Shown here: in pieces, positions 3,656-61,115 of the stretch
Layout of the letters: every line of letters starts with the position of its first letter
Numbering within the stretch: the stretch's first letter is position 1
Assembly (NCBI GenBank): GCA_016301965.1
Contig: JAEDOO010000001.1
Coordinates: 4,283 to 68,282 of the forward strand
Source: Lachnospiraceae bacterium
GTDB lineage: Bacteria > Bacillota > Clostridia > Lachnospirales > Lachnospiraceae
Length of the DNA stretch: 64,000 nucleotides
Direction: 5' to 3'
Made by a program: the position numbers and the translations under genes
The notes under the pieces: generated by a model
Told to the model about the DNA's origin: nothing
Databases searched by the model: none
What the model saw: only the letters and a program-made list of their open reading frames with translations

Positions 3656-3659
3656 GAAT

Positions 3660-43944: not shown

Positions 43945-44010
43945 TGTCGAATTGTTTTTTATAGTGTCCGCACTGTTTTGACAAATAAAGCACCTCATCC
44001 TTTCTATAAT
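43945..44010 (+). promoter_or_regulatory. candidate Spo0A-dependent spoIIG promoter
   Basis: 0A box TGTCGAA (43945-43951). TTGACA (43978-43983) is overlapped by the reverse near-0A box TTTGACA. A 21-nt spacer precedes TATAAT (44005-44010). Confidence 0.5.
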
Positions 44011-44047
44011 GGAATGCATCTGGACAACAGAGAATTCTGTTATAGGA

Positions 44048-45350: not shown

Positions 45351-45455
45351 ATAGCTGTCAAGGTGTATTATTTTTTAAATTTCTACAGCAATCGTATATT
45401 CGATGCCATAAATGAGAATCATTTTACTATCCGATGGATAGGAGGATTCTTAATT

Positions 45456-46232
45456 ATGGCATTGCATAAAGTGGAAATCTGCGGAGTCAGTACAGCCAAA
45501 TTGCCGGTACTGAGCGATGAAGAAAAACAGACTTTACTGGAAAAAGTCAAGGCAGGAGACCAGGAGGCCAGAGAAACCTATATCAAAGGAAATCTGCGGT
45601 TGGTCTTAAGTGTGATCCGACGTTTTTCGGGCAGTAATGAGAATGCAGATGATCTGTTTCAGATCGGCTGTATAGGACTGATCAAGGCGATTGATAATTT
45701 TGATACCAGTCTGCAGGTAAAATTCAGCACATACGCCGTACCCATGATCATTGGTGAAGTACGCAGATATCTGCGTGATAATAACAGTGTCCGGGTCAGC
45801 CGTTCTTTGAAGGACACTGCTTATAAAGCAATCAGCGCCAGAGAACGTTATATGAAGACGAAACAAAAAGAACCGTCACTGGATGAAATTGCGCAGGAAA
45901 TAGGTATCAGTCAGGAAGATATTGTCTATGCGCTGGACGCCATGCAAAGTCCAATGAGCCTGTACGAGCCGGTATATACAGAAGGCGGCGATGTGCTGTA
46001 TGTGATGGATCAGATCAGTGACCGCAAAAATAAGGAGGAAAACTGGATCGAGGATATTTCTCTCCGGGAGGCGATGGAACGTCTGGAACAAAGGGAGAAA
46101 CATATCATTAGTCTGCGGTTTTTTGAAGGGAGGACGCAGACAGAGGTGGCCAGGGAAATTGGCATTTCACAGGCACAGGTTAGCCGGCTGGAAAAACATG
46201 CTTTGGGGCATATGCGGCAGTATCTGAGCTGA
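45456..46232 (+). CDS. sigG: sporulation sigma factor SigG
   Basis: MALHKVEICGVSTAKLPVLSDEE, GNLRLVLSVIRRF and GISQAQVSRLEK. Start at ATG 45456 after GGAGG. Confidence 0.9.
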   Translation: MALHKVEICGVSTAKLPVLSDEEKQTLLEKVKAGDQEARETYIKGNLRLVLSVIRRFSGSNENADDLFQIGCIGLIKAIDNFDTSLQVKFSTYAVPMIIGEVRRYLRDNNSVRVSRSLKDTAYKAISARERYMKTKQKEPSLDEIAQEIGISQEDIVYALDAMQSPMSLYEPVYTEGGDVLYVMDQISDRKNKEENWIEDISLREAMERLEQREKHIISLRFFEGRTQTEVAREIGISQAQVSRLEKHALGHMRQYLS

Positions 46233-46483: not shown

Positions 46484-48193
46484 ATGAAAGAAGTGAAGAT
46501 GACGAAACGTATCAACAGTTTTCTGCTCATGGCTTTGACGGCTGTGCTGGCGATTCTTCTGACGATCACGGGGGTTCGCGCGGACAATGTGATTGCGAAT
46601 GCGAATCCGAAAGATGATGGCAGTGCGGTAAGTATCAGTGTTAAGACGGAAAAAGCCTACAAGAACATCAAAGTACAGATCTATCATAGTGACGAGGATA
46701 TTTCCAAAGCCACATGGCATGAACTGACGTATACGGGCTCCGATAATCTCTGGTCTGCAGTGATCCCTGCAGATAAATTTTCTAATGAGAAGACGGGTGA
46801 ATTTTATTATTGCGTATGGGGCATTGCAGGAGAGGATACAGATGAATATCTGACAAAGGGAATGTTCGAACTGAAAGATCTTCCCCTTTCGGTAACCGGA
46901 TCGGATGCCAACGGAGTTAAAAACACCTTTAAAGTAACCGTAGCCGGTCTGGAGAAGAGTAAAAATGTTTCTAAAGTTAAGCTGGAAGTAACAGCTGGAA
47001 ATAAAGCGGCGTACACGTATACACCGTCTCTTCAGAAAGATGGTACATATCAGACCGAAGTAAAACTTTCCAATCATAAGTATTACTGGGGAAAATATTC
47101 TCTTAAAGCTACCATATCTTTGGAGGATGGAAAGACAAGAACCGTAAGCGGAGAATATAATTTTGATCCTCAGAATTATTATCGTATAGGCAAAGGGAAC
47201 GATGATAAAAGCCGTACATTTTATGCCAGCAATCTTACGGTAAAGGGCAGTAAAGTTACTGTGGAGCTGTGGAGTAAGACAAATGGCCGCGATGATGTGA
47301 CAACATATACGATGAAGAAAGAAGGCAGACTGTATAAGGTTGTTGTAAATCTGACAAAACTGAAACACCAGGGTATTGCTTATTTCCGTGTGAAAGTGGA
47401 TGGTAAACAGTGCGGGGCCGATTTTGAATACAAGATTCCCGCAAATGTTGTGAAGAAAAACGGCTGGTATTACGAAAAGTACAATGGCACGACCTATAAA
47501 TTTTATTATGAGAATGGTGTGAAACGAAAAGATGTTTCCAGCCTGATCAAAAACAAAAAATATATGATCGAGCTGAATCGCGCTGCCTGTGTCGCTACTG
47601 TGCTTGCTTATGATTCCCAGAAAAAGACTTATTGTATTCCGGTTAAAGCATTTACGGTTTCTGTCGGAAGTGATGTGTCCAGCACAAAAACTTCCAAGGG
47701 ATTGACATTGAAATCCAGATTTACACCACTGGGTACATATTCCGTATGCTCCAATGGCAAAGCGGTCCGGTATTCTATGAAGACTATGGTAGAACCGGAT
47801 AAGAGCCGGGTATATGCAAGATGGGCAACGCACCTTGTAGGAAATGTGTATTTCCATGCAATCGCTGTCAGCAAAAATTCACATAAGGCATTGAATTACA
47901 AAACATACAATAAGCTGGGATCTCCCGCTTCTGCCGGATGTATCCGTATGACGGTAGCGGATGCAAAGTGGATTTACGATAATATTAAGACCGGTACCAA
48001 GGTTAAGATCATCAAAGGAAGTAAAAATACACCTGGACCGCTGGGTAAACCGGCAACAATCCGAATCAAATCTTCGAAAGTGAAATATGATCCTACGGAT
48101 CCGGCTATTTCTGATTCCACAAAACAGAAAGACTATAAGGCGGGCAGAATCACCGGTTATATGAAGAAAAACGGAACAAAAGTCGGTTATTGA
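46484..48193 (+). CDS. secreted L,D-transpeptidase (YkuD domain) with Bsp-like repeats and a cell-wall-binding repeat
   Basis: Signal peptide. Repeats of the type VTVELWSKTNGRDDVTTY. A GWYYEKYNGTTYKFYYENG repeat. YkuD catalytic motif HAIAVS...SPASAGCIRM. Confidence 0.85.
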   Translation: MKEVKMTKRINSFLLMALTAVLAILLTITGVRADNVIANANPKDDGSAVSISVKTEKAYKNIKVQIYHSDEDISKATWHELTYTGSDNLWSAVIPADKFSNEKTGEFYYCVWGIAGEDTDEYLTKGMFELKDLPLSVTGSDANGVKNTFKVTVAGLEKSKNVSKVKLEVTAGNKAAYTYTPSLQKDGTYQTEVKLSNHKYYWGKYSLKATISLEDGKTRTVSGEYNFDPQNYYRIGKGNDDKSRTFYASNLTVKGSKVTVELWSKTNGRDDVTTYTMKKEGRLYKVVVNLTKLKHQGIAYFRVKVDGKQCGADFEYKIPANVVKKNGWYYEKYNGTTYKFYYENGVKRKDVSSLIKNKKYMIELNRAACVATVLAYDSQKKTYCIPVKAFTVSVGSDVSSTKTSKGLTLKSRFTPLGTYSVCSNGKAVRYSMKTMVEPDKSRVYARWATHLVGNVYFHAIAVSKNSHKALNYKTYNKLGSPASAGCIRMTVADAKWIYDNIKTGTKVKIIKGSKNTPGPLGKPATIRIKSSKVKYDPTDPAISDSTKQKDYKAGRITGYMKKNGTKVGY

Positions 48194-48299: not shown

Positions 48300-49010
48300 T
48301 CAGCGGATGAGATACCGCTTTAATTTGACAGGATCCAGATTTAGGATCAACCGGTCGGGAATGCCGCATTCCCGAAGGAGTGGTTCGATATGGCGAAAAT
48401 CACCGACATGGTCAGCGCCATGGCTATCGCTGGATAAAAGAATGGGATGGTCAAGCTTTTTACACAAAGTAAGAATCTTACGAACATTATCCCGGGTGTC
48501 GCCGCGGTAGCCTTTCGGTGAAAGCGAGCTGTCATTGATCTCCAGAAGAACACGGTAAGAAACAGCGGCCTCTGTCAGGGCTTCATAATCTGCCGGATAG
48601 TGAGCGTCATCACAATGTCCGATCACGGAAACGTAGGGATTTTTCATGGCACCAATATAGGCGGCTGTGTTTTCTTCCAGGGTTCCGGGACGCAGATTTG
48701 GACGATGCATGCTGGCAATGGCATAATCCAGACCCGACAGAGTTACAGAATCCATATCTACCCGTCCTGTATAATCCAGAATATTCAATTCTATACCATA
48801 TAAAAGCTCCACGCCGCAGCGAAACTTCGGTGCCATGGAAAGACTGCGGAAATAGGATACTGTTCCGGCACACATAGTAGACGGCGCATGGTCGGACACC
48901 CCGAGAAGTGTAAGTCCCCGGGCTTTTGCAGTCTTAGCCAGATCTGTAATGGTAGCCTGAGTGGCATGACCGCTGGCAATGGAATGTGTATGAATATCTG
49001 CATAGTACAT
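48300..49010 (-). CDS. PHP-domain metal-dependent phosphoesterase (YcdX-like)
   Basis: MYYADIHTHSIASGHA, VSDHAP and SSDSHGADHVGDF. Start at ATG 49010; track start 49040 is a less likely upstream ATG. Confidence 0.8.
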   Translation of the reverse strand: MYYADIHTHSIASGHATQATITDLAKTAKARGLTLLGVSDHAPSTMCAGTVSYFRSLSMAPKFRCGVELLYGIELNILDYTGRVDMDSVTLSGLDYAIASMHRPNLRPGTLEENTAAYIGAMKNPYVSVIGHCDDAHYPADYEALTEAAVSYRVLLEINDSSLSPKGYRGDTRDNVRKILTLCKKLDHPILLSSDSHGADHVGDFRHIEPLLRECGIPDRLILNLDPVKLKRYLIR

Positions 49011-49093
49011 AAAATCATCTCCTATAAAAGAGTTGCACAAAAATACATTTTAAGTATGAGGCAAACTGTATAAAAAGTCAATAGTTTATGAAG

Positions 49094-49154
49094 AAAACAA
49101 CGGAAAACAAAATATGAATCCGAAAAAGCAACACCTAAAACAACATAAAACAAT
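49094..49154 (+). repeat. A/C-rich tract with four AAAACAA[C/A/T] direct repeats in two 10-nt-spaced pairs
   Basis: AAAACAAC at 49094, AAAACAAA at 49104, AAAACAAC at 49137, AAAACAAT at 49147. The tract lies upstream of BMC promoter P1. Confidence 0.6.
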
Positions 49155-49185
49155 AAAAACAAAAGAGAAAGTTATGAGGTAATTG

Positions 49186-49214
49186 TTGACTTTGACTATT
49201 GCATAAGATATAAT
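49186..49214 (+). promoter_or_regulatory. BMC locus promoter P1 (near-consensus sigma-A)
   Basis: TTGACT (49186-49191), 17-nt spacer, TATAAT (49209-49214). Confidence 0.65.
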
Positions 49215-49277
49215 GTTTATCAGCATAAAGTATAGTGTGCGGGACTGTTGTCGAGAAAAAATCACGGAGGTTGCGTA

Positions 49278-50069
49278 ATGGGTTATCTGGATACAAAAGG
49301 ACGAATATTTGATATCCAGCGTTTCTCAGTACATGATGGCCCGGGTATCCGGACGATCGTGTTCCTGAAGGGATGTCCTCTGCGCTGCCAGTGGTGCTGC
49401 AATCCCGAGTCGCAGTCCAGAGATATTGAGACCATGCGGGTAGCCGGAGAGACAAAGATCATCGGACAGGATGTTACCGTGGCACAGGTCATGGCGACAG
49501 TGGAGAAGGACAGATCCTACTACCGCAGATCCGGCGGAGGGCTTACCCTTTCCGGCGGAGAAGCTACCATGCAGCCGCAGTTTGCTGCAGACCTTCTGCA
49601 GGCGGCCAAAATGTCCGGCATCGGCACGGCCATGGAAAGTATGGGGTGCTGCCCGTATAAGAGTCTTGAACTGATTCTTCCCTGGCTGGATACATATCTG
49701 ATGGATATCAAACACACAGATCCGGAAAAACATAAAGCCTTTACCGGTGTCCGCAATGAGCTGATGCTGGAAAATGCCAGAAAAGTTGCTGTTTCCGGTA
49801 TGGCTGAGCTGGTGATCCGGGTTCCTGTGATACCTACGTTCAACGATACGAAAAAGGAGATCCAGGACATAGCCGTATTTGCCGGTCAGCTTCCGGGGGT
49901 CAGAAGGATACATCTTCTTCCATATCATCGTCTGGGCAGTGAAAAATACATCGGCCTTGATCGTGTATATAAGATGGATGAGATCATACCACCGGAAATG
50001 GATCATATGCTTATGCTGAAGGACGCAGTTGAGATGGTTTCTGATCTTGATTGCCGGATCGGCGGATAA
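49278..50069 (+). CDS. glycyl-radical enzyme activating protein (radical SAM)
   Basis: 263 aa. RFSVHDGPGIRTIVFLKGCPLRCQWCCNPES contains the CxxxCxxC motif. ATG 49278 follows GGAGG. Confidence 0.88.
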   Translation: MGYLDTKGRIFDIQRFSVHDGPGIRTIVFLKGCPLRCQWCCNPESQSRDIETMRVAGETKIIGQDVTVAQVMATVEKDRSYYRRSGGGLTLSGGEATMQPQFAADLLQAAKMSGIGTAMESMGCCPYKSLELILPWLDTYLMDIKHTDPEKHKAFTGVRNELMLENARKVAVSGMAELVIRVPVIPTFNDTKKEIQDIAVFAGQLPGVRRIHLLPYHRLGSEKYIGLDRVYKMDEIIPPEMDHMLMLKDAVEMVSDLDCRIGG

Positions 50070-50117
50070 CTTATCCGGGATCCTGAAAGTGCGGTGATAT
50101 ACCGCAGGAGGATAAAT

Positions 50118-50495
50118 ATGGGTTATACAGACAATATGAGCCCTGAAGTCAAACAGAGGATCGTACAGGAACTGGTACCTGGTAAACAGATATCCCTGGC
50201 ACATATTATCGCGAATCCGGATCGGATCATGTATGAAAAGCTTGGTCTGGATCCGTCTGTAGATTACGCAAAGTCTGCCATTGGTATTCTGACGGTCAGT
50301 CCGTCAGAGACGGCTATCATTATGGGGGATATCGCGGTGAAGTCTTCCGGTATCGATCTTGGATTTGTGGATCGTTTTAGCGGCAGCCTGATCATCACAG
50401 GAACTGTTTCTGAGGTAGAGGCTTCGGTTAACGCAATTCTGGATTACGTAGGCAATACTCTTGGATTTGCCGTCTGCCCGGTCACAAGGACCTGA
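50118..50495 (+). CDS. pduU: BMC shell protein, circularly permuted PduU/EutS type
   Basis: ELVPGKQISLAHIIANP, AIGILTVSP, GFVDRFSGSLIITG and ..VTRT. ATG follows AGGAGG. Confidence 0.85.
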   Translation: MGYTDNMSPEVKQRIVQELVPGKQISLAHIIANPDRIMYEKLGLDPSVDYAKSAIGILTVSPSETAIIMGDIAVKSSGIDLGFVDRFSGSLIITGTVSEVEASVNAILDYVGNTLGFAVCPVTRT

Positions 50496-50502
50496 TGATA
50501 CT

Positions 50503-50988
50503 ATGAAGAAGATCGTACTGATGGGCCGCAGTGAGGCAGGAAAGACCACACTCACTCAGGCACTCAAAGGAGAAAAGATACATTATCATAAGACCCAGTA
50601 TGTTAATAACTTTGATGTGATCATCGATACACCGGGCGAATACGCCCAGACAGCCAAACTTGGACATGCGCTGGCGCTGTATTCCTATGAAGGCGATGTA
50701 GTTGGCCTTCTGTGTTCGGCCATTGAACCATATTCCCTTTATCCACCCTGCATTACCTGCATGTGCAACAGGGAAGTGATCGGTATAGTGACCAAGATCA
50801 ATCATCCCAAAGCCAATCCCGAGAGAGCGGAGCGGTGGCTGAGGCTGGCCGGCTGTAAAGATGTGTTCTGGGTGGATTCTCATCTGGGACAGGGAATCCC
50901 GGAAATTCTGGAACATTTGAGGGAACCGGGCGATGTGATGCCCTGGGAAAAGGAAGAAAACCAACAAAACCCAACACAAACCAGATAA
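50503..50988 (+). CDS. pduV: EutP/PduV-family small GTPase
   Basis: MKKIVLMGRSEAGKTTLTQAL and IDTPGEY. 161 aa. Confidence 0.85.
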   Translation: MKKIVLMGRSEAGKTTLTQALKGEKIHYHKTQYVNNFDVIIDTPGEYAQTAKLGHALALYSYEGDVVGLLCSAIEPYSLYPPCITCMCNREVIGIVTKINHPKANPERAERWLRLAGCKDVFWVDSHLGQGIPEILEHLREPGDVMPWEKEENQQNPTQTR

Positions 50989-51058
50989 AACAACTACAAA
51001 ACAACATAATTTGAATTGACACCCTGCAGCATGGAGGGTATAATGTCAATAGATTCAA
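50987..51058 (+). promoter_or_regulatory. BMC locus internal promoter P2 (consensus sigma-A) with flanking repeats
   Basis: AAAACAAC x2 (50987 and 50998). TTGACA (51016-51021), 17-nt spacer, TATAAT (51039-51044). The promoter is bracketed by the imperfect inverted repeat ttgaattgaca ... tgtcaatagattcaa. Confidence 0.65.
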
Positions 51059-51091
51059 AAGAAACCAACTATTTTCAAGGAGGAAATGAAA

Positions 51092-51928
51092 ATGCAAAAC
51101 GAATTTGAAATCAAAAAACAAATTTGTGAGATCGGTCGCAGAATCTACAACAAAGGTATGGTAGCAGCTAATGATGGTAACATCTCCGTTAAGCTGTCCG
51201 ACAATGAGTTCCTTTGTACACCTACTGGTGTATCCAAAGGTTTCATGACACCGGAGTATATCTGCAAGGTTGATAAAGAAGGTAAAGTGATCCAGGCTAA
51301 CCCGGGATTCAGACCGTCTTCCGAGATCAAAATGCACATGAGAGTTTATTCTAAGAGACCGGACGTTGGTGCTGTAGTTCATGCTCATCCGCTGTATGCT
51401 ACATCCTTCGCTATTGCCGGTATCCCGCTGACACAGCCGATCATGCCGGAAGCTGTTATCGCTCTTGGCTGCGTTCCGATCGCTGAGTACGGTACACCGT
51501 CCACAATGGAGATCCCGGACAATGTTGAAAAATATCTTCCGTACTTCGATGCAGTTCTGCTGGAGAGCCATGGTGCTCTGACCTGGTCTACAGACCTTCT
51601 GGCTGCATACATGAAGATGGAGTCTGTTGAGTTCTACGCACAGCTGCTGTATCAGTCCAAGGTTCTGGGAGGACCGAAGGAATTCGATTCCAAGACAGTT
51701 GAGAGACTGTATGAGATCAGAAGACAGATGGGTCTTCCGGGCAAACATCCGGCAAACCTGTGCCAGAACAAAGGCGAGAAGAACTGCCACAACTGTGGCG
51801 GCGGATGTCATTCCAGCAGCAATCTGGGCGCTTGCACAGGCAGTGTACAGGCTGATCCGAACGCAACAAACGCAGACCTGGTTACAGCTATCACAAAGAA
51901 AGTAATGGCTCAGCTGGGACTTCAGTAA
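51092..51928 (+). CDS. class II (fuculose/rhamnulose-1-phosphate type) aldolase with Cys/His-rich linker and C-terminal encapsulation peptide
   Basis: ANDGNISVKL, PSSEIKMHMRVY, VVHAHP and LLESHGALTW. A C-terminal ~55-aa extension ends in ADLVTAITKKVMAQLGLQ. ATG 51092 lies 8 nt after GGAGG (the track start is 51086). Confidence 0.88.
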   Translation: MQNEFEIKKQICEIGRRIYNKGMVAANDGNISVKLSDNEFLCTPTGVSKGFMTPEYICKVDKEGKVIQANPGFRPSSEIKMHMRVYSKRPDVGAVVHAHPLYATSFAIAGIPLTQPIMPEAVIALGCVPIAEYGTPSTMEIPDNVEKYLPYFDAVLLESHGALTWSTDLLAAYMKMESVEFYAQLLYQSKVLGGPKEFDSKTVERLYEIRRQMGLPGKHPANLCQNKGEKNCHNCGGGCHSSSNLGACTGSVQADPNATNADLVTAITKKVMAQLGLQ

Positions 51929-51946
51929 GACTGGGGGGAATAACTC

Positions 51947-53335
51947 GTGGCAGTAAATGAGAGCATGGTACAGGATATCGTGAAAGAGGTTATGGCAAAG
52001 ATGCAGCTGGCATCCGCACCGACCGGTAATCACGGTGTATTTCAGGACATGAACGAAGCGATCGAGGCTGCCAAAAAGTCTCAGAAGATCGTTCGCAGAA
52101 TGTCCATGGACCAGAGAGAACAGATCATTTCTGTTATCCGCAGAAAGACAAGAGAAAATGCAGAGATTCTGGCCCGCATGGGTGTGGACGAGACTGGAAT
52201 GGGTAACGTGCCGCACAAGATTCTGAAACATCAGCTGGTAGCTGAAAAAGTTCCGGGAACTGAAGATATCACCACACAGGCTTTCTCTGGTGACCGTGGA
52301 CTGACTCTGGTAGAGATGGGACCCTTTGGGGTTATCGGTGCGATCACACCGTGTACAAACCCCAGTGAGACAGTTCTGTGCAATACCATGGGTATGTTCG
52401 CCGGCGGAAATACAGTAGTATTCAATCCGCATCCGGCAGCAATCAAAACATCTATCTACGCAGTTAACATGGTAAACGAAGCTTCTCTGGAATGCGGCGG
52501 ACCGGACAACATCGCGGTTACCGTAGAGAAACCCACCATGGAGACCAGCGCTATCATGATGAAACATCCGGACATCCCGCTGATCGCGGCAACAGGTGGC
52601 CCGGGCGTTGTTACCGCCGTTCTTTCTTCCGGTAAGAGAGGTATCGGCGCAGGTGCCGGAAATCCGCCGGCACTGGTAGATGAGACAGCAGATATCCGCA
52701 AAGCTGCAGAAGACATCGTTAACGGATGTACATTCGATAACAATCTTCCTTGTATCGCCGAGAAAGAGATCGTTGCCGTTTCTTCTATCGCAGATGAACT
52801 GATGTACTATATGCTGAATGAGCAGGGCTGCTACCTGATCAACGAAGAACAGCAGAAACAGCTGACAGACGTTGTATTAAAGGGCGGCAGACTGAACCGT
52901 AAATGTGTCGGCAGAAGCGCTAAGGTTCTGCTTTCCATGATCGGTATTGATGTTCCGGACAATATCCGCTGCATCACATTCTTCGGCGAAAAAGAACATC
53001 CGCTGATCACAGAAGAGCTGATGATGCCGATCCTTGGTATTGTCAGAGTAAAAGACTTCGAGGAAGGACTTGCCACAGCTAAGTGGCTGGAGCATGGCAA
53101 CCGCCATTCTGCACATATCCATTCCAAGAATGTTGACCGTATCACGGAATATGCACGTGAGCTGGATACAGCCATCCTTGTAAAGAATGGTCCGTCCTAT
53201 GCAGCTCTGGGCTTCGGCGGTGAGAGCATCTGTACTTTCACTATTGCCAGCCGTACCGGCGAAGGTCTGACAAGTGCCAAGACATTCACCAAGGCAAGAC
53301 GCTGCGTAATGCAGGACAGCTTGTGCATTCGCTAA
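51947..53335 (+). CDS. CoA-acylating aldehyde dehydrogenase (PduP/EutE family) with N-terminal encapsulation peptide
   Basis: N-terminal MVQDIVKEVMAKMQL and catalytic Cys in NNLPCIAEKE. GTG start after GGGGGGA. Confidence 0.88.
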   Translation: MAVNESMVQDIVKEVMAKMQLASAPTGNHGVFQDMNEAIEAAKKSQKIVRRMSMDQREQIISVIRRKTRENAEILARMGVDETGMGNVPHKILKHQLVAEKVPGTEDITTQAFSGDRGLTLVEMGPFGVIGAITPCTNPSETVLCNTMGMFAGGNTVVFNPHPAAIKTSIYAVNMVNEASLECGGPDNIAVTVEKPTMETSAIMMKHPDIPLIAATGGPGVVTAVLSSGKRGIGAGAGNPPALVDETADIRKAAEDIVNGCTFDNNLPCIAEKEIVAVSSIADELMYYMLNEQGCYLINEEQQKQLTDVVLKGGRLNRKCVGRSAKVLLSMIGIDVPDNIRCITFFGEKEHPLITEELMMPILGIVRVKDFEEGLATAKWLEHGNRHSAHIHSKNVDRITEYARELDTAILVKNGPSYAALGFGGESICTFTIASRTGEGLTSAKTFTKARRCVMQDSLCIR

Positions 53336-53352
53336 ACAGGAGGAACTAAAAA

Positions 53353-54582
53353 ATGGACGTAAATTCAATTAATATTGAAGATATCGTTAAACAGGTCCTG
53401 GCAGATATGACAGGAAAGGCTCCGGCAGCTGCAGCAGCTCCTGCAAGTGCTCCGGCAGCACAGGGCGGTATCCCGAAAACAGCACGTGTAGCTGTTCTTA
53501 CTGACCTGAAACATTTTGAACTTAAGGAATACCCGATCCCGCCGTTAGGCGATGATGATCTTCTTGTTAAAGTAGAGGGTTGTGGTGTCTGCGGTACAGA
53601 CGCTCATGAGTTCAAGGTTGATCCGTTCGGACTGATCCCGGTTGCTCTGGGACATGAAGGTACCGGTGAGATCGTTGCCATGGGTAAGAATGTTAAGACA
53701 GATACAGCCGGCAAGCCGGTTAAGGTTGGTGACAAGATCGTAACCTGTATGATTTTCAAGGATGATCCGGAGATCACCATGTTCGACCTGAACAAGAAAA
53801 ACGTTGGCGGTGCCGATGTATACGGTCTGCTTCCGGATGATGATATCCATCTGAACGGCTGGTTCGCTGATTATATCTTCGTAAGAGGCGGCAGCTTCGG
53901 ATCCACTTTCTTTAATGTAAGTGATCTGGATCTGGATTCCCGTATCCTGATCGAGCCCTGCGCAGTTCTGATCCACGCTGTGGAGAGAGCAAAAACTACA
54001 GGCATCCTGAAATTCAACAGCCGTGTAGCTGTTCAGGGATGCGGACCGATCGGTCTGATTTGTATCGCTATTCTGCGTACTATGGGTATCGAGAATATCG
54101 TTGCTATTGATGGTAATGAGCAGAGACTGGCATTCGCTAAGAGAATGGGTGCTGACAATTCTGTTAACTTCGCTAACTTCCAGGGCATCGAGGCTCTGAC
54201 AGAAGGCGTTAAAGACGCTTTCGGCGGACATCTGGCAGATTTCGCATTCCAGTGTACAGGTAATCCGAAGGCTCATGCCAATATTTACAAATTTATCCGT
54301 AACGGCGGCGGACTTTGCGAGCTTGGTTTCTTCATCAATGGTGGAGATGCTACGATCAATCCGCACTTCGATCTGTGTTCCAAAGAGATCAACCTGGTTG
54401 GTTCCTGGGTATACACACTGAGAGATTACGTTACCACATTTGATTTCCTGAAGAGAGCACAGGCCATCGGACTTCCGATGAAAGAACTTATCACTCATAA
54501 GTTCCCGCTTGAACAGATCAATGAGGCTCTTGAGACCAACCTTTCCATGAAAGGACTCAAGATTGCCGTCGTTAACAAATAA
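53353..54582 (+). CDS. zinc-dependent MDR alcohol dehydrogenase with N-terminal encapsulation peptide and Ala/Pro linker
   Basis: N-terminal INIEDIVKQVLADMTG, then APAAAAAPASAPAA. GCGVCGTDAHEF, GHEGTGEIV and a GCGPIGL Rossmann motif. Confidence 0.85.
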   Translation: MDVNSINIEDIVKQVLADMTGKAPAAAAAPASAPAAQGGIPKTARVAVLTDLKHFELKEYPIPPLGDDDLLVKVEGCGVCGTDAHEFKVDPFGLIPVALGHEGTGEIVAMGKNVKTDTAGKPVKVGDKIVTCMIFKDDPEITMFDLNKKNVGGADVYGLLPDDDIHLNGWFADYIFVRGGSFGSTFFNVSDLDLDSRILIEPCAVLIHAVERAKTTGILKFNSRVAVQGCGPIGLICIAILRTMGIENIVAIDGNEQRLAFAKRMGADNSVNFANFQGIEALTEGVKDAFGGHLADFAFQCTGNPKAHANIYKFIRNGGGLCELGFFINGGDATINPHFDLCSKEINLVGSWVYTLRDYVTTFDFLKRAQAIGLPMKELITHKFPLEQINEALETNLSMKGLKIAVVNK

Positions 54583-54604
54583 GATTAGTTAATCAGGTGA
54601 TAGT

Positions 54605-54922
54605 ATGGCAGAAGCTGTAGGATTATTAGAGGTTTACGGACTGACCACAGCCTTTCAGGCAGCAGACGCAGGCTGCAAGGCCGCAAATGTCCGTCTCGAA
54701 ATATTTGATAAAAACAAACCTGCACGAAATGCAGACAAAATGCCTGTTCCGCTGATCATCTGTGTGAAATTCCGCGGAAGTGTCCAGGACGTGACAGCGG
54801 CTGTGGAAGCGGGCATGGCAATCGCAGAGCAGGAGGCTGGTGTAGTGCAGCATTACGTCATCGCAAATCCTACAGAGGACTGCGAAAAAATGCTGAAGAT
54901 CAGCTGTCTTGACAAAGCTTGA
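54605..54922 (+). CDS. BMC-H shell protein with divergent pore-loop region
   Basis: AVGLLEVYGLTTAFQAADAGCKAANV... The BMC fold is recognisable, but the canonical K-I-G-S-G loop is replaced by FDKNKPARNADKMPVPL. Confidence 0.75.
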   Translation: MAEAVGLLEVYGLTTAFQAADAGCKAANVRLEIFDKNKPARNADKMPVPLIICVKFRGSVQDVTAAVEAGMAIAEQEAGVVQHYVIANPTEDCEKMLKISCLDKA

Positions 54923-54958
54923 CGAAAAAAGTAAACCATTGTTCAGGAGGAAAGAAAC

Positions 54959-55234
54959 ATGGCTAAAGAAGCATTAGGAATGATTGAGACCAGAGGTCTT
55001 ACTGCTGCTATCGAAGCTGCAGATGCAATGAGCAAAGCAGCAGAGGTTGCTCTGGTAGGAACAGAGAAGATCGGTTCCGGTCTGGTAACCGTTATGGTTC
55101 GTGGTGATGTAGGTGCCGTTAAGGCTGCCGTAGAAGCTGGAAGCGCAGCAGCATCCAGACTTGGCGAGCTGGTAGCTACACATGTAATCCCGAGACCGCA
55201 TGAGGACGTTGAGAAGATCCTTCCGAGAATCTGA
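54959..55234 (+). CDS. pduA: BMC-H shell protein (PduA/EutM type)
   Basis: [58 protein letters not shown]. Confidence 0.92.
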
Positions 55235-55258
55235 TCCTGAGACATCATTGGAGGAATC

Positions 55259-55546
55259 ATGGGAAAATCATATGGCTTTTTTGAAGTACCCGGTGTCGTA
55301 GCAGCTATGGATGCACTGGATATTATGTGCAAAACATCAGATGTTGTACTGGCCAGCTGGGAACGTAAGATGGGTGGCCGTCTGGTAACCCTGATTATTG
55401 AAGGAGATGTATCTTCTGTTCAGCAGGCAATCGATGCGGCATGTGAAAAGTGTATCAAAAAACCTGCTTGTCACGCAGTCATAGCACGTCCCCATGAAGA
55501 GATCGTACGTATCGTTGAGCGCAGCGCGAAACGGTGGAAGAAGTAG
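55259..55546 (+). CDS. BMC-H shell protein (divergent)
   Basis: [50 protein letters not shown]. Confidence 0.8.
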
Positions 55547-55557
55547 GGGGACACGAC

Positions 55558-56064
55558 ATGGCGGAAATTAAAAAGACAACCAGTAAAGCAGCTGCCCCTA
55601 AAAAAGCTGTTGCGGCGCGTACGAGTGCTGCAGGTACAACAGCAAAAAAGGTAACAGCAAAGAAACCGGCTGCCGCTCCGAAAAAAGAGAGTGCAGCTAA
55701 GACTGCCGCTGCAGATGCAGCTGAGGCAGATAAAATCGTTAAAAATGTGGGCGAAGCCCCGATTATCCACAAGGAGGAAAAAAGAATGGCACAGGAAGCA
55801 TTAGGAATGGTTGAAACCAGAGGTTTAGTAGCAAATATCGAAGCAGCAGATGCTATGTGCAAAGCTGCTAACGTTGCTCTGGTTGGTACAGAGAAAATCG
55901 GTTCCGGTCTGGTAACTGTTATGGTTCGCGGCGATGTTGGCGCTGTTAAATCTTCTGTAGAAGCAGGCGCAAACGCTGCATCCAGACTTGGTGAGCTGGT
56001 AGCTACACACGTAATCCCGAGACCGCACGAGGATGTTGAGAAGATCCTGCCGGCAATCAAATAA
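55558..56064 (+). CDS. BMC-H shell protein (PduA paralogue) with 76-aa basic Ala/Lys/Pro-rich N-terminal extension
   Basis: [43 protein letters not shown]... is followed by a domain roughly 85-90% identical (by eye) to the 54959 product. An in-frame internal ATG at 55786 is preceded by AAGGAGGA. Confidence 0.85.
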
Positions 56065-56095
56065 GCATTTTTAATACTTAAGGAATTGCATAAGC

Positions 56096-56136
56096 TGCAG
56101 TGCAGTGTCTACATATATTTACACTGCACTGCTCTT
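56096..56136 (+). terminator. intra-operon stem-loop (attenuator/processing site candidate) after the shell-gene block
   Basis: Perfect 12-bp stem gcagtgcagtgt / acactgcactgc with a 12-nt loop, followed by tcttt. Confidence 0.45.
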
Positions 56137-56163
56137 TAAAAAAACAAGAAAGCAGGTGTCAAC

Positions 56164-56808
56164 ATGCAAAATCAGGATGTTGAATTAATTACCAGACTGG
56201 TAATGGAAGCCATCCAGCAGCAAACTCCTTCCAAACAGGGATTTGCTGTACCGGTTGGTGTATCCGCAAGACATGTACATCTGTCCCAGGCAGATCTGGA
56301 GGTGCTGTTCGGTGAAGGCTATCAGCTGACAAAGAAAAAAGAGCTGATGGGCGGACAGTTTGCATCCAACGAGCAGGTTACTATCGTAGGACTTAAGCTT
56401 CGTGCCATCGAGAATGTCCGTATCCTCGGACCGTGCCGTAAGGCTTCCCAGGTGGAGATCTCAAAGACAGATGCACTTAAGCTCGGAATCAAGGCACCGG
56501 TCAGAGAATCAGGTGATGTAGCCGGCTCTGCACCGATCGCACTGGTTGGACCAAAAGGTGTTCTGTACCTCAATGAGGGATGTATCGTAGCTCAGAGACA
56601 TATCCATATGTCCCCGGCAGATGCTGCAGCAGCAGGCGTAAAGGATGGCGACATCGTTTCCGTTCAGGCTGAAAACGAGAGAGGAACCACATTCAACCAC
56701 GTTAAGATCCGTGTTCATGAAACATTCACACTGGAAATGCACATTGATACAGATGAGGCCAATGCAGCCGGTATCAAACAGGGCGACACTGTTAGAATGT
56801 TCAAATAA
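56164..56808 (+). CDS. pduL: phosphate propanoyltransferase (PduL) with N-terminal encapsulation-type helix
   Basis: PVGVSARHVHLSQADLEVLFG and the second-half QRHIHMSPADA. N-terminal VELITRLVMEAIQQ. Confidence 0.9.
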   Translation: MQNQDVELITRLVMEAIQQQTPSKQGFAVPVGVSARHVHLSQADLEVLFGEGYQLTKKKELMGGQFASNEQVTIVGLKLRAIENVRILGPCRKASQVEISKTDALKLGIKAPVRESGDVAGSAPIALVGPKGVLYLNEGCIVAQRHIHMSPADAAAAGVKDGDIVSVQAENERGTTFNHVKIRVHETFTLEMHIDTDEANAAGIKQGDTVRMFK

Positions 56809-56872
56809 TAAGCGCAAAAGGGGCGGATTATTTTCGCCCCTATACGTGTAAATAACCACATGGAGGTATGAG

Positions 56873-57139
56873 ATGATTGTAGGCAAAGTAGTAGGCAGTG
56901 TTGTTTCTACCAGAAAAAGCGACAATCTGATAGGTCAGAAATTTATGATTGTAGAGCCGGTGCAGCATATGAAAGGCAGCCTTAATCAGCTCGTGGCCAT
57001 CGACAACATTGGTGCCGGTGTAGGCGAATTTGTGCTTGTAGCGCAGGGCAGCGCAGCCAGAATCGGTTGCGGACTTGATTCAGCACCGATAGATGCGGCT
57101 ATTGTTGGTATCATTGACGACGGAGCAGGATTGGAGTGA
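56873..57139 (+). CDS. pduN: BMC-P pentameric vertex protein (EutN/PduN/CcmL family)
   Basis: MIVGKVVGSVVSTRK...GQKFMIVEP...DAAIVGIID. 88 aa. Confidence 0.88.
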   Translation: MIVGKVVGSVVSTRKSDNLIGQKFMIVEPVQHMKGSLNQLVAIDNIGAGVGEFVLVAQGSAARIGCGLDSAPIDAAIVGIIDDGAGLE

Positions 57140-57143
57140 TAAC

Positions 57144-58469
57144 ATGGATATCAATACATTAAAAAATATCTTGCAGGAGAATGGTATCGTTGGCGCCGGC
57201 GGAGCGGGATTTCCCACATATGCAAAGCTGGATGAGAGAGCTAACACAATTCTTCTGAACTGTGCCGAGTGTGAACCGCTTCTGAAACTCCACAGACAGC
57301 TGCTGGAAAAACATGCGTATGAGATCATGAAAACGTTCAGCATGGTAGCAGATGTAGTTGGTGCAGACGAGGCAATTATCGGCGTTAAAGAGTCTTACAA
57401 AGATACAGTCAAGGCTCTGGAAACATACATAGACGAATTTCCGAAGGTACGCATTCATCAGCTGCCGGAAGTATATCCGATGGGCGATGAGGTCGTACTG
57501 ATTTATGAAGCAACGGGACGTGTTGTACGTCCGGGCGGACTTCCCATTGAACAGGGAGTTGCCGTATTTAACGTAGAGACTATTTATAATGTGTATCGTG
57601 CAGTGGAAAAACAGCAGCCGGTTACAGACAAGCTTGTATCTGTAGTGGCTGAGGTAGAACATCCGGTGACAGTGCGTGTGCCCATCGGCACTGCTCTCAG
57701 TGAAGTAGTTGCCATGGCAGGTGTGACTACAGTCAAGGATCCGGTATACTTTGTGGGCGGCCCAATGATGGGCTTTATCGGTTCCGGAGATATGCCGGTG
57801 ACCAAGACCACAAATGCTGTTCTGGTACTTCCGCAGGATCACGTTATTGTCAATAAAAAGAGAAGTAAAGCATCTATTGGCATGAAGAGAGCAGCATCTA
57901 TCTGCTGCCAGTGCCATATGTGTACGGACATGTGTCCGAGATTTAACCTGGGTCATCCAATCCAGCCGCATATGTTTATGCGTGCTACATCCAATCATGA
58001 CTTCCAGGATACAAATCCTTATCTGAACACATTCTTCTGCTGTTCCTGTGGTGTGTGTGAGATGTATGCCTGCCCGCAGAGCCTGGCACCCCGCTCACTG
58101 ATGCTGGAATTCAAAGGCGGACTGCGCAAAAATGGCGTGAAACCGCCTCAGGTTACCGCAAAACCGGTTCATGACGGCAGAGAACTCAGAAAGGTTCCGG
58201 AAGAGAGACTGATGGCCAGACTGGGACTGTCCAGATATGACAAACCGGCTCCGCTTAATGATACAGTGGCAGCGGTAAAGAAAGTAACTGTCAAACTCAG
58301 CCAGCACATCGGTGCGCCGGCACAGGCTGTCGTAAAGAAAGGTGACATTGTCACTGCAGGACAGGTAATTGCCAAACCGGCTGACAAGGCGTTGAGCGTT
58401 GCTATTCATGCTTCTATCAGCGGAAGAGTAACGGATGTGAATGATCAGACGATCGTGATCGTAGCATAA
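57144..58469 (+). CDS. PduS/RnfC-like flavin and Fe-S oxidoreductase
   Basis: GIVGAGGAGFPTYAKL (RnfC/NuoF-like) and 4Fe-4S motifs CCQCHMCTDMCP and CCSCGVCEMYACP. Confidence 0.8.
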   Translation: MDINTLKNILQENGIVGAGGAGFPTYAKLDERANTILLNCAECEPLLKLHRQLLEKHAYEIMKTFSMVADVVGADEAIIGVKESYKDTVKALETYIDEFPKVRIHQLPEVYPMGDEVVLIYEATGRVVRPGGLPIEQGVAVFNVETIYNVYRAVEKQQPVTDKLVSVVAEVEHPVTVRVPIGTALSEVVAMAGVTTVKDPVYFVGGPMMGFIGSGDMPVTKTTNAVLVLPQDHVIVNKKRSKASIGMKRAASICCQCHMCTDMCPRFNLGHPIQPHMFMRATSNHDFQDTNPYLNTFFCCSCGVCEMYACPQSLAPRSLMLEFKGGLRKNGVKPPQVTAKPVHDGRELRKVPEERLMARLGLSRYDKPAPLNDTVAAVKKVTVKLSQHIGAPAQAVVKKGDIVTAGQVIAKPADKALSVAIHASISGRVTDVNDQTIVIVA

Positions 58470-58486
58470 GAAAGGATGTGCACAAG

Positions 58487-59035
58487 ATGAGTAAAGCAAT
58501 CGGAATGATTGAATTTAAGACCATAGCTACAGGTATTACCGCAGCAGATGCTATGGTAAAGACAGCAGACGTCGAGCTTGTAGAAGCACAGGCTGTATGT
58601 CCCGGTAAATATATTGCTATTGTTTCCGGCGATCTGAGTGCTGTCAAAGCAGCTGTAGACGCAGCCTGCACACAGTATGAGACAGAACTGATTGACAGTA
58701 TGGTTCTGGGTAATCCTCATGAGTCTATTTTCCCGGCAATTTACGGTGCTTCCCATGTAGATGATATCAGCGCTCTCGGTATTATCGAGACATACGATGT
58801 GGCTGCTATCATTGAGGCAGCCGATGCTGCTGCAAAGACAGCTATCGTTGAACTGATCGAGCTGCGTATTGCCAAGGGTATGTGCGGTAAATCCTATATG
58901 CTGCTTACCGGCGAGGTATCTGCAGTTGAGGCAGCTATAGAGAGAGCCAAAGCAGTAGTTGGTCCGAAAGGAATGTATCTGGATTCTTCTGTTATTGCCC
59001 ATCCGGATAAAAAGATCGCCAATTCGATCTTATAA
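58487..59035 (+). CDS. pduT: BMC-T tandem-domain shell protein (PduT-like)
   Basis: Two BMC domains (AIGMIEFKTIATGITAADAMVK.. and ALGIIETYDVAAIIEAADAAAK..). A Cys in VCPGKY sits at the position of the PduT cluster ligand. Confidence 0.82.
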   Translation: MSKAIGMIEFKTIATGITAADAMVKTADVELVEAQAVCPGKYIAIVSGDLSAVKAAVDAACTQYETELIDSMVLGNPHESIFPAIYGASHVDDISALGIIETYDVAAIIEAADAAAKTAIVELIELRIAKGMCGKSYMLLTGEVSAVEAAIERAKAVVGPKGMYLDSSVIAHPDKKIANSIL

Positions 59036-59081
59036 TCATCTTTAAGATGAAAAACGCAGCTGCAGGAAAGGAGAGCAACAG

Positions 59082-59846
59082 ATGTTAGCACTCGAAAGAA
59101 GAAATCTGATACTCGAAAAGCTGCAGGAAGACAAAAAAGTTGTTGTGAGTTTGCTCAGCCGCCAGTTTGGAGTGTCGGAGGAGACGATCCGCCGCGATCT
59201 GGAAAAGCTGGAGTCTGACGGCTTTGCCATAAAGAGCTATGGCGGAGCTGTGCTGAATGAAAACAGCAACGTTGATATGCCCTTTGGCATCCGAAAAAAT
59301 AAAAACGTTTCTGCAAAACAGAAAATTGCCGAGCTGGCAGCAAAACTGGTGGACGATGATGATCAGATCATGCTGGATGCCAGTACCACTGCTGTATTTA
59401 TAGCCCGCGCACTGAAACAGAAATCTCGCCTGACAGTAGTCACCAACTCTATTGAGGTGTTGCTTGAACTTTCGGATATCTCTGGCTGGAATGTGATATC
59501 TACCGGAGGTAAGCTGAAAGAAGGTTATCTTGCGCTTCTGGGTTACAATGCACAGGTAGGGGTGGAACGTTACTGTGCGGATAAACTGTTTCTGTCCTGC
59601 AAGGGTTTGGATATTTTTCGTGGATTTATGGATTCCCAGGAAGCCTTTGCACAGGTGAAACAGTCCATGCTTCGCTCTGCACGGGAAATATATCTAGTAG
59701 TGGATAATTCCAAATTCGAGCAGGGGGCATTTTGCAAGATCGGTGATTTTGGTATCTTAAGCGGTATCATTACGGACAGAGAGCCGGAGCAGGAATGGCA
59801 GGAATTTTTCAGAGAGCAGGGCATACGCTGCTACTATCCCCGTTGA
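59082..59846 (+). CDS. DeoR-family transcriptional regulator
   Basis: N-terminal HTH (RRNLILEKLQEDKKVVVSLLSRQFGVSEETIRRDL) plus a sugar-phosphate-binding C-terminal domain. 254 aa. Confidence 0.88.
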   Translation: MLALERRNLILEKLQEDKKVVVSLLSRQFGVSEETIRRDLEKLESDGFAIKSYGGAVLNENSNVDMPFGIRKNKNVSAKQKIAELAAKLVDDDDQIMLDASTTAVFIARALKQKSRLTVVTNSIEVLLELSDISGWNVISTGGKLKEGYLALLGYNAQVGVERYCADKLFLSCKGLDIFRGFMDSQEAFAQVKQSMLRSAREIYLVVDNSKFEQGAFCKIGDFGILSGIITDREPEQEWQEFFREQGIRCYYPR

Positions 59847-59879
59847 TGAGGATATTTCGAAAAAAGGTGAAAACTAGTT

Positions 59880-61025
59880 ATGAATACATTTAAAATGTTA
59901 ACCACGATCCATTTCGGAGATAACGCACTGGATCATCTGAAGGAAATTACCTATCAGAGAATTATGGTGATCATGGATCCGTTTGTCTATACAAGCGGTC
60001 TGTATAAGCAGATTACAAAACCTCTCGAAGAGGCACATAAAGATTATACGATTTTCAGCGATGTTGTGCCGGATGCTCCAATCGATAAGATTTCGGCCGG
60101 TGTAAAGGCATTTCTTGAGTACAAGCCGGATGCGATCGTTGCTGTAGGCGGCGGTTCTGCAATAGATTCTTCCAAATCTATCCGTGAATTTGCATTGAAA
60201 ATCAACCCTTATGGTAAAGTGGGTCTGATCGCTATTCCGACGACCAGTGGTACAGGATCCGAGGTAACAGCCTTTGCTGTAGTTAATGACACTCAGGCTA
60301 AGGTAAAATATCCGCTTGTATCTGACAGTCTGACTGCCGATGAAGCTATTCTGGATGCGGCGCTGGTTACCAGTGTACCGCCGGCGGTCACAGCGGATAC
60401 GGGTATGGATGTTGTGACTCATGCGCTGGAGTCTTATGTCAGCACACAGCATAATGAGTTTTCTGCTGCTCTTGCAGAGAAAGCTCTGGAGATCTGTGGT
60501 GTGTTCCTGCCCAGATGTTATTATGACGGTCAGGATATGCATGCCCGTCAGAAGATGCATGTGGCTTCTTGTCTGGCAGGACTTGCTTTCAATACCGCGT
60601 CTCTGGGTATCAATCACAGTATGGCACATCAGCTGGGCGCTAGATTCCATATTCCCCATGGCCGTGCCAATGCGATGCTGTTGCCCCATGTTATTGAGTT
60701 TAACTCAGATATCAATCATGCCAGCCGCAGTCAGAAGGAATACCTTCCCGCTGTGGAACGATATGCTTCTGTAGCCCATGTGCTGGGATTATCAAGCTAC
60801 AATCCGGTTATGGGTGTCAGATCTCTGGTGAACTGGACACAGTTTATGATGAAGGAAATGGCAATTCCCATGCGCATTTCCGAACTGAAAACGATCAGTG
60901 CAGTGGAATATTTCGATGCTCTGGATGATATGGCAGAAAAAGCATTGAATGACGGCTGTACGGCAACTAATCCGCGCCCGGTGACCAAGGAGCAGATTAA
61001 GCATATTTATACAAAGCTCTGGTAA
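59880..61025 (+). CDS. iron-containing alcohol dehydrogenase (lactaldehyde/propanediol oxidoreductase-like)
   Basis: AVGGGSAIDSSK, PTTSGTGSEVT, and His-rich metal-site residues (HALESY, HSMAHQLG, HGRANA). Confidence 0.85.
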   Translation: MNTFKMLTTIHFGDNALDHLKEITYQRIMVIMDPFVYTSGLYKQITKPLEEAHKDYTIFSDVVPDAPIDKISAGVKAFLEYKPDAIVAVGGGSAIDSSKSIREFALKINPYGKVGLIAIPTTSGTGSEVTAFAVVNDTQAKVKYPLVSDSLTADEAILDAALVTSVPPAVTADTGMDVVTHALESYVSTQHNEFSAALAEKALEICGVFLPRCYYDGQDMHARQKMHVASCLAGLAFNTASLGINHSMAHQLGARFHIPHGRANAMLLPHVIEFNSDINHASRSQKEYLPAVERYASVAHVLGLSSYNPVMGVRSLVNWTQFMMKEMAIPMRISELKTISAVEYFDALDDMAEKALNDGCTATNPRPVTKEQIKHIYTKLW

Positions 61026-61073
61026 TCGAAAGAGATAATCTCGACATATAGTTGATGATACTTGGTACTTTAG

Positions 61074-61115
61074 CAGAGGCGTTGCCCATAAAGCAGCGCC
61101 TCTGTTTGCATTTTT
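61074..61115 (+). terminator. rho-independent terminator closing the BMC/alcohol dehydrogenase unit
   Basis: cagaggcgttgc / gcagcgcctctg stem (one G-U pair), 7-nt loop, then tttgcattttt. Confidence 0.75.

Follow-up and report, generated by a model that had tools for sequence, protein, structure and literature searches.

Glycyl radical enzyme (GRE)-associated microcompartment (GRM) loci are defined by a GRE together with its cognate activase (Ferlez 2019, PMC6325248). One of their classes, GRM5, is represented by Clostridium phytofermentans (Cphy_1174-1187) and Roseburia inulinivorans (Zarzycki 2015; Ferlez 2019). Through such compartments, gut Firmicutes can convert host and dietary fucose and rhamnose to propionate and propanol. 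Relatives of GRM5 that have no GRE, for example in Hungatella hathewayi and Clostridium bolteae, are catalogued as 'PVM-like' by Axen 2014 (PMC4207490) and in the supplement of Sutter 2021 (PMC8217296), and Axen et al. considered that such loci may be GRM5 fragments. Here, we describe a complete GRM5-type fucose/rhamnose microcompartment locus without a GRE, located at positions 49011-61115 of a 64,000-nucleotide stretch of contig JAEDOO010000001.1 (the window, meaning the whole stretch that was analysed) and belonging to an uncultured gut Lachnospiraceae lineage. The GRE was deleted in the common ancestor of at least six species-level lineages and a deeper branch, and the activase has been conserved behind the promoter of the operon, where it may now serve a GRE encoded elsewhere.

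With the GRE excepted, the window locus has the same gene content and order as the GRM5 loci of C. phytofermentans and R. inulinivorans, and it shares with them a short activase without an insert and encapsulation-peptide-like extensions on the aldolase, the CoA-acylating aldehyde dehydrogenase (AldDH) and the Zn-dependent alcohol dehydrogenase (Zn-ADH). It differs in that the signature GRE is missing and the activase is the first gene behind the promoter, P1. The PVM-like loci resemble it in being aldolase-signature metabolosomes without a GRE, usually with a DeoR regulator, in having an AldDH, PduL and BMC-P nearest to those of GRM5, and in occurring in human-gut Clostridia. Most of them are said to lack a core alcohol dehydrogenase, whereas the window locus keeps its Zn-ADH; it also keeps PduS/PduT and the full GRM5 order. 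The published descriptions are silent on a retained activase. According to the supplement of Sutter 2021, GRE and activase are separated in GRM3C but both are still within the locus, whereas the window locus keeps the activase alone; MUF1 and EUT2x have no signature enzyme in the locus and no activase left, whereas the window locus retains one. Among the 13 gut genomes with a fucose/rhamnose microcompartment that Ravcheev et al. 2019 surveyed, 10 have a dehydratase and just 6 have it co-localised (PMC6620236). GRM3C, MUF1, EUT2x and the genomes of Ravcheev et al. show that a microcompartment locus can be without, or distant from, its aldehyde-generating enzyme (PMC8217296; PMC6620236). GRE-less GRM5 relatives and distal dehydratases have therefore been published already; what appears to be new is the conserved orphan activase, which goes unmentioned in the published accounts consulted on PVM-like, GRM3C, MUF1/EUT2x and distal-dehydratase loci.

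No GRE could be detected in the window. A tblastn search with four GRM5 GREs over the whole 64 kb gave no match better than E = 0.18, and no GRE remnant was found in the 267-bp spacer upstream of the activase or in the rest of the window at E up to 10. The first-pass annotation, made from the sequence alone, had stated that no GRE was present among the open reading frames (ORFs) longer than 650 aa and that a 589-aa ORF was antisense. Domain identities bear out both statements: the ORFs of at least 650 aa encode an Ig-like surface protein, an NlpC/P60 hydrolase, PriA, PrkC and a PBP, and the 589-aa ORF (50798-52567, minus strand) is antisense to the aldolase and AldDH genes. The same annotation had stated that in the GRM5 loci of C. 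phytofermentans and R. inulinivorans the GRE lies immediately 5' of its activase. This holds for the other related loci, with activases at most 72% identical to that of the window, since a GRE of ~841 aa is found directly 5' of the activase in 74 of 74 (in 2 of which the GRE is cut by the contig end); an activase-first arrangement is not the common state.

The GRE-less junction is reproducible. Five independent Logan assemblies contain the order of minus-strand PHP phosphoesterase gene, promoter and activase, with the same YkuD and PHP(-) neighbours and an activase identical to that of the window. When one genome per species was scanned with the activase as query, six species-representative metagenome-assembled genomes (MAGs; L006-L010 and L082) showed an activase 89-98% identical to that of the window in the arrangement PHP(-)-spacer-activase, with the GRE absent; five carry the label uncultured Lachnospiraceae, and the sixth, L009, is a bin under the name Ruminococcus bromii. 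Gut samples from humans (Hadza, HRGM) and pigs have yielded members of the lineage. The GRE-less junction is also present on two other metagenome contigs, L099 and L101. The activase and PHP protein of L099 are 75% and 72% identical to those of the window, and the spacers of the two share the motif TCGAGAAAAAATCAC; the GRE is absent from the L099 locus, as it is from the six MAG loci. Since L099 has the same junction, the loss must be older than the clade with 89-98% identity. An assembly or binning artefact at 49.0-49.3 kb could be invoked on account of the general fragility of metagenome assemblies only, and misassembled GRE/activase entries do exist (P0001, P0122-P0124). We consider it hardly credible here, as the same junction is found in five Logan runs, in six MAGs of different projects, in L099 and in L101, and the divergence of the spacer keeps pace with that of the flanking genes.

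In neighbour-joining trees, whether built from the concatenated enzymes or from the activase, the GRE-less clade is nested inside GRM5, next to L023 and a Blautia group. The order PHP(-)-GRE-activase occurs in at least 20 of the 74 comparison loci, PHP(-) is also directly upstream of the GRE in L102-L108 and L118, and L105 has exactly the gene order of the window with the GRE added. The PHP phosphoesterase diverges from the GRE/activase promoter in many GRM5 loci of differing genomic context, and behaves like a conserved accessory gene of the locus.

The spacer itself records how the GRE was lost. P1 contains a GTCAATAG box (49077-49084), A-rich AAAACAAC/AAACCACA-type repeats, a TTGACT-17-TATAAT promoter (49186-49214 in the promoter scan) and a GGAGG ribosome-binding site. 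It aligns with the spacers between PHP and GRE in L105 and L023, having in common with them the GTCAATAG box, the AAAACAAC/AAACCACA repeats, the TTGAC -35 element and the TATAAT -10 element. The deletion was a clean one that dates far back, and it spared the promoter: the glycyl radical 1,2-propanediol dehydratase ORF of ~2.5 kb was excised from between P1 and the activase, leaving the activase as the first gene. A second promoter, P2, precedes the aldolase; its perfect TTGACA-17-TATAAT (51016-51044) is accompanied by AAAACAAC-type repeats and by a GTCAATAG box (51045-51052), and this promoter is kept in clade members and in the GRE-containing loci L023, L105, L102, L098, L026 and L047. In the whole 64 kb, GTCAATAG occurs only twice, in P1 (region 49060-49215) and in P2. 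P1 and P2, being of the same design, look like a shared operator system, possibly the target of the DeoR regulator. Since they have the same repeat architecture, the loci can be viewed as two co-regulated units, which seem to be GRE-activase-PduU-PduV and the aldolase through the Fe-dependent alcohol dehydrogenase (Fe-ADH). A search for riboswitches or leader RNAs across 48-62 kb returned no Rfam match at E up to 0.1.

The structural and evolutionary conservation of the activase is of particular interest. That the gene looked intact had been noted at the outset, and its ORF, motifs, conserved columns and selection all agree with this. The protein contains CPLRCQWC, HDGPGIR and SGGE, and thus the CxxxCxxC, DGxGxR and GGE motifs of the glycyl-radical activase family, which it matches over its full length: its TIGR02494 score is 289 bits (cut-off 174), the match being made up of two stretches that leave out the insert. 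The PflA equivalog model scores 191 bits, below its cut-off of 232. The activase aligns end to end with the E. coli pyruvate formate-lyase (PFL) activating enzyme 3C8F (245 aa), with DGPGIR, CxxxCxxC and GGE kept. Within the clade, pairwise dN/dS is 0.01-0.08 at dS 0.2-2.4, like that of the neighbouring genes, and against the deep lineage L099 it stays below 0.09 (dN 0.16-0.19, dS saturated). A set of 73 GRE-linked activases gives 95 columns with a conservation of at least 95%, and the seven clade activases all agree with it at 94 of these; the remaining one shows a Ser-to-Thr change in three clade sequences, and when L099 and L101 are included none of 94 conserved columns is altered. Judging by this conservation, the activase is functional and under strong purifying selection throughout the GRE-less lineage. 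Relaxed selection was considered and rejected: the rate of the activase relative to the other enzymes is 1.6-1.9 in the clade, inside the range of 1.3-2.2 for close GRE-containing pairs.

The same data bear on whether the activase could be a decaying, functionless relic of a recent GRE deletion. It does adjoin the site of the deletion, and the locus no longer encodes its cognate GRE. A relic, however, would not be expected to remain an intact ORF in every one of more than ten independent sequences, to show dN/dS of 0.01-0.08 at dS values that go above 1 and reach saturation against L099, to keep 94 of 95 conserved columns, or to evolve no faster, in relative terms, than in close GRE-containing pairs; the dS values also exclude the clade sequences as recent horizontal copies of one another. 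We regard this explanation as very improbable and effectively refuted, and for practical purposes it can be set aside together with an artefact. PduS and PduT, which are thought to supply electrons to the activase in GRMs (PMC6325248), are constrained equally: dN/dS is 0.02-0.09 for PduS, with its CxxCxxCxxxC motif kept, and below 0.02 for PduT, with the VCPGKY motif and Cys38 kept.

The locus and its left-hand neighbour were delineated from the ORF map, translations, Pfam and NCBIfam, with domain order read on the plus strand, as follows.

48300-49010, minus strand: PHP-domain phosphoesterase (PF02811, NCBIfam PRK09248), divergent and the conserved left-hand neighbour of GRM5 loci
49011-49277, plus strand: P1 promoter/operator region, from the promoter scan and the spacer alignment with L105, L023 and other GRE-less loci
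49278-50069, plus strand: GRE activating enzyme, 263 aa (Radical_SAM/Fer4_12; PF04055, PF13353, TIGR02494)
50118-50495, plus strand: PduU/EutS-type permuted BMC-H shell protein (PF00936, NCBIfam EutS subfamily)
50503-50988, plus strand: PduV/EutP small GTPase-like protein (PF10662, TIGR02528)
50960-51085, plus strand: P2, second regulated promoter, before the aldolase (promoter scan, 12/12 matches)
51086-51928, plus strand: class II aldolase, fuculose/rhamnulose-phosphate type (PF00596), with a Cys-rich linker and a C-terminal encapsulation-peptide-like helix
51947-53335, plus strand: CoA-acylating AldDH, PduP type (PF00171), with an N-terminal encapsulation-peptide-like helix
53353-54582, plus strand: Zn-ADH of the GRM5 'lactaldehyde reductase' type (PF00107, PF08240), with an N-terminal extension
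54605-54922, plus strand: BMC-H shell protein 1 (PF00936)
54959-55234, plus strand: BMC-H shell protein 2 (PF00936), 100% identical across the clade
55259-55546, plus strand: BMC-H shell protein 3 (PF00936)
55558-56064, plus strand: BMC-H shell protein 4 (PF00936 at ORF residues 89-164)
56164-56808, plus strand: PduL-type phosphotransacylase (PTAC; PF06130)
56873-57139, plus strand: BMC-P pentamer (vertex) protein (PF03319)
57144-58469, plus strand: PduS-like flavin/Fe-S oxidoreductase (PF01512, PF13534, PF13375)
58487-59035, plus strand: BMC-T shell protein, PduT type, Cys38 retained (two PF00936 domains, TIGR02526)
59082-59846, plus strand: DeoR-family regulator (PF08220, PF00455)
59880-61025, plus strand: Fe-ADH, FucO/PduQ-like, last gene of the locus (PF00465, PF25137; TIGR02638 match below cut-off)
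61072-61106, plus strand: strong terminator-like hairpin of 14 pairs followed by a T run, closing the locus

The gene order given in the first-pass annotation, from the activase to DeoR, stands by Pfam and NCBIfam, with the exception that the Fe-ADH at 59880-61025, which lies within 49011-61115, had gone unnamed; an Fe-ADH occupies the same position in L016, L023, L024, L032, L102 and L105. Its reading of the 267-bp upstream spacer as a promoter region, with a PHP phosphoesterase on the minus strand as the next gene, was correct, and so was its match to GRM5, for which all gene content and order agree apart from the GRE. We compared the locus with GRM5 for the GRE, an insert-less activase, the aldolase and Zn-ADH, the PduS/PduT features and the phylogenetic grouping of the core enzymes. 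No GRE (PF02901 plus PF01228) is encoded in the locus, and these domains are absent from the long ORFs of the window. The activase (PF04055) lacks the ferredoxin-like insert of ~70 aa, a trait of GRM5 alone among GRMs; a class II aldolase (PF00596) and a Zn-ADH (PF00107, PF08240) of the family assigned a 'lactaldehyde reductase' role by Ferlez 2019 are present, as are PduT Cys38 and the PduS Fe-S motif; and the core enzymes group with their GRM5 homologues in the neighbour-joining trees (the AldDH shares 84% identity with its L023 counterpart). The locus thus falls outside the GRM definition through its missing GRE, yet it fits every other GRM5 feature and nests within GRM5. It also shows the combination that characterises the PVM-like class, namely a class II aldolase as candidate signature enzyme, no GRE, and AldDH, PTAC and BMC-P nearest to GRM5.

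The first-pass annotation had proposed, as its headline chemistry, a PVM-like lactaldehyde scheme in a GRM chassis, and had given a GRE encoded elsewhere as the alternative. In such an organelle, the lineage would have no propanediol-dehydratase GRE, the aldolase would release lactaldehyde, which would be oxidised through lactyl-CoA to lactate with gain of ATP and balanced by reduction to 1,2-propanediol, and the activase would have been co-opted for another GRE (e.g. PFL) or a new substrate. The aldolase, AldDH, alcohol dehydrogenase and PduL suffice for this chemistry, and the GRE is absent from the locus, the 64-kb window and the sister-species flanks. GRE-less GRM5-related loci exist in gut Firmicutes (PMC4207490; PMC8217296, supplement), and in Ravcheev 2019 (PMC6620236), 3 of 13 genomes with the fucose/rhamnose microcompartment are without a dehydratase and this pathway is favoured. 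Thirteen substitutions in the activase are fixed in the clade and specific to it, among them L97T and C98M next to the GGE motif, and this too would suit a change of client.

The AldDH was examined for a shift from propionaldehyde to lactaldehyde. It matches the structure of Cphy1178 (4C3S) at E = 4e-232, and the catalytic residues K94, N138, C269, E357 and H387 are retained. Tuck et al. 2016 (PMC4762007) argued that the hydrophobic I421 and I433 of Cphy1178 exclude hydroxylated aldehydes and that its natural substrate is propionaldehyde. The tunnel of the window enzyme has L421, which is also found in 18 of 34 GRE-containing loci, and I433, and is hydrophobic as in GRE-containing loci. Conserved columns are altered in the clade more often in the AldDH (4/201) than in the other enzymes (1/652; Fisher p = 0.012); none of 149 is altered in the aldolase, none in PduL or PduS, and one in the Zn-ADH. 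The non-conservative, clade-specific changes E346F, V379K and A405E at otherwise conserved columns may be counted in favour of lactaldehyde chemistry. The sole change near the tunnel, however, G427S and F428I in the loop between the two tunnel residues, is also found in the GRE-containing L023. A shift of the AldDH to lactaldehyde was therefore rejected, the loop change being shared with L023, the tunnel residues unchanged and the other three changes without a clear signal. The core enzymes are all under strong purifying selection, and we see no sign in their sequences of an adaptation to lactaldehyde.

Other observations also argue against this chemistry. The fucose/rhamnose-type promoter P1 would be an odd site for the activase of PFL or of an unrelated GRE, conserved columns are unaltered in aldolase, PduL and PduS and altered once in the Zn-ADH, and PduS/PduT, the presumed electron supply of the activase in GRMs (PMC6325248), are tightly constrained. 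With the constraint on the activase, its 94 of 95 conserved columns, the constraint on PduS/PduT and the hydrophobic AldDH tunnel, we do not favour the headline chemistry of the first-pass annotation, and consider a lactaldehyde-disproportionating organelle possible but doubtful. If it were correct, the activase would need a new client. In its most explicit form, there would be no propanediol-dehydratase GRE at all, a GRM5 organelle would have been converted in situ to a PVM-like compartment, and the activase and PduS/PduT would have been kept over tens of percent of divergence for a new client, either another GRE, activated in trans, or a compartment substrate that is not a GRE; this we think rather unlikely.

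A further alternative is that propanediol is dehydrated by a B12-dependent PduCDE encoded elsewhere, as in Clostridium methylpentosum, and that the activase is kept for an unrelated reason. The large subunit, PduC, has ~550 aa, and no pduCDE genes were found in the window among the domain-annotated genes of the locus and every ORF of at least 510 aa. The AldDH tunnel would be compatible with propionaldehyde from this source, a PduS homologue is present, and in C. methylpentosum, according to PMC6620236, a B12-dependent dehydratase is co-localised with the fucose/rhamnose microcompartment genes. PduS, however, occurs in every GRM5 locus, whether or not B12 is involved (PMC6325248), and the conservation of the activase at dN/dS 0.01-0.08 would go unexplained. 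We regard this route as improbable.

We favour a functional activase that serves a GRE encoded elsewhere, combined with ordinary GRM5 chemistry, over PVM-like lactaldehyde chemistry, and would give this reading an even chance. The activase belongs to a family with no known role beyond the activation of GREs and has been kept by selection behind the regulated promoter of the operon, and the downstream enzymes seem unchanged; a GRE encoded in trans is thus the simplest reading. In this model, the activase would install the glycyl radical on a GRE at another chromosomal site, most probably a member of the same propanediol dehydratase family. Fuculose-1-phosphate or rhamnulose-1-phosphate would be cleaved to dihydroxyacetone phosphate and lactaldehyde, lactaldehyde would be reduced to 1,2-propanediol, 1,2-propanediol would be dehydrated to propionaldehyde, and propionaldehyde would yield propionyl-CoA and then propionyl-phosphate, plus propanol. 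In E. coli, PflA activates the trans-encoded GREs TdcE and GrcA. One activase can therefore serve non-adjacent GREs, and the window activase is equally short and collinear with PflA; it differs in belonging to TIGR02494, and PflA has its main substrate, PflB, encoded beside it. Free-standing GRE-activase pairs in the sister genus Blautia make a GRE copy outside the locus plausible for this branch of the family. A precedent for distal dehydratases in genomes with a fucose/rhamnose microcompartment is provided by Ravcheev et al. 2019 (PMC6620236).

Several observations weigh against a GRE encoded in trans. No distal GRE was found in the window, in the sister-species flanks or among the database relatives that were checked. 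In the window, counted from the start of the activase, this covers ~49 kb on the upstream side and 14.7 kb on the downstream side. In a sister species it covers ~27 kb downstream, from L010 combined with L117, a 696-kb contig of the L010 species (97.4% identical to L010, and found through an ABC permease homologue) that adds ~13 kb downstream with an ABC transporter, His_Phos_1, LrgAB, GntR, HAD, MBL and MatE. Contigs with exact protein matches to the Fe-ADH or the ABC permease were all short. A search for a relocated GRE by similarity to the nearest GRE, that of L023, gave none that was distinctive among the best 120 database relatives, which are 76-79% identical after the self-match, although such a search could miss a distal GRE; two real relatives checked for context, P0125 and P0172, both lie in canonical PHP-GRE-activase loci. 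GRE and activase are adjacent in 74 of 74 other loci, even where they have moved as a pair, and a split pair would be unusual for the family. Finally, two features of the activase fit a change of partner, namely a modest excess of its between-clade rate (ratio 1.41 vs 1.18) and the clade-specific changes L97T and C98M beside the GGE motif.

Whether the products are propionate and propanol or 1,2-propanediol and lactate alters the predicted cross-feeding role of the lineage, which represents a natural experiment in which the gene of a signature enzyme has been uncoupled from that of its activase. If the GRE is encoded in trans, cargo genes need not sit in the locus, and locus-based classifiers would mis-type such organelles as PVM-like or incomplete. 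If there is no GRE, a conserved activase without its client would point to a new activity of this radical SAM family.

GRE-activase pairs also occur in other arrangements. In L066, L077, L080 and L083 the pair has moved, intact, to the 3' end of the microcompartment operon and follows DeoR or BMC-T, and in L045 a second, distant pair (1311-3700; 29% and 34% identity) lies just upstream of the canonical one. Pairs without shell or core microcompartment genes within 10 kb were seen in L011, L013-L015, L017, L019-L022, L025, L036, L040, L041 and others, mostly Blautia. The free-standing Blautia GRE is ~73% identical to the microcompartment-linked GREs, and the neighbours of the pair in Blautia faecis (L019) include a two-component system, a phosphotransferase system EIIC, peptidases, an Fe-hydrogenase-like protein and a lactate dehydrogenase. 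The metagenome-derived activase/GRE entries P0001, P0122, P0123 and P0124 contain internal tandem duplications and are probably misassemblies; the duplications inflate HMMER scores and rank these entries above genuine relatives, and three of them were higher-scoring in the search with the L023 GRE.

Some features of the other proteins may also be mentioned. BMC-H shell protein 4 has an Ala/Lys/Pro-rich, low-complexity N-terminal extension of ~80 residues (55558-55800), and related loci have homologues of similar length (160-168 aa), including a gene called at 168 aa in L086. Between its domain and its C-terminal helix, the aldolase (51700-51928) carries a Cys/His motif, HPxxxC-x5-9-CHxC-x2-3-C, which is conserved over GRM5 loci (~18 related loci) and suggests a metal or Fe-S site. 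In L117 (7222-8368), the Fe-ADH after DeoR is split into ORFs of 215 and 174 aa, and is either a frameshift pseudogene or a sequencing error. Upstream of the locus, the YkuD (L,D-transpeptidase)/GBS Bsp-like protein (46484-48193, plus strand) is a fast-evolving surface protein, with 51-63% identity among clade members against 82-100% for their neighbouring genes. Upstream of YkuD, the sigma-factor pair and the 289-aa ORF beside it are arranged in L010 as in the window (44009-46232) and are inverted in L008 (800-3100).

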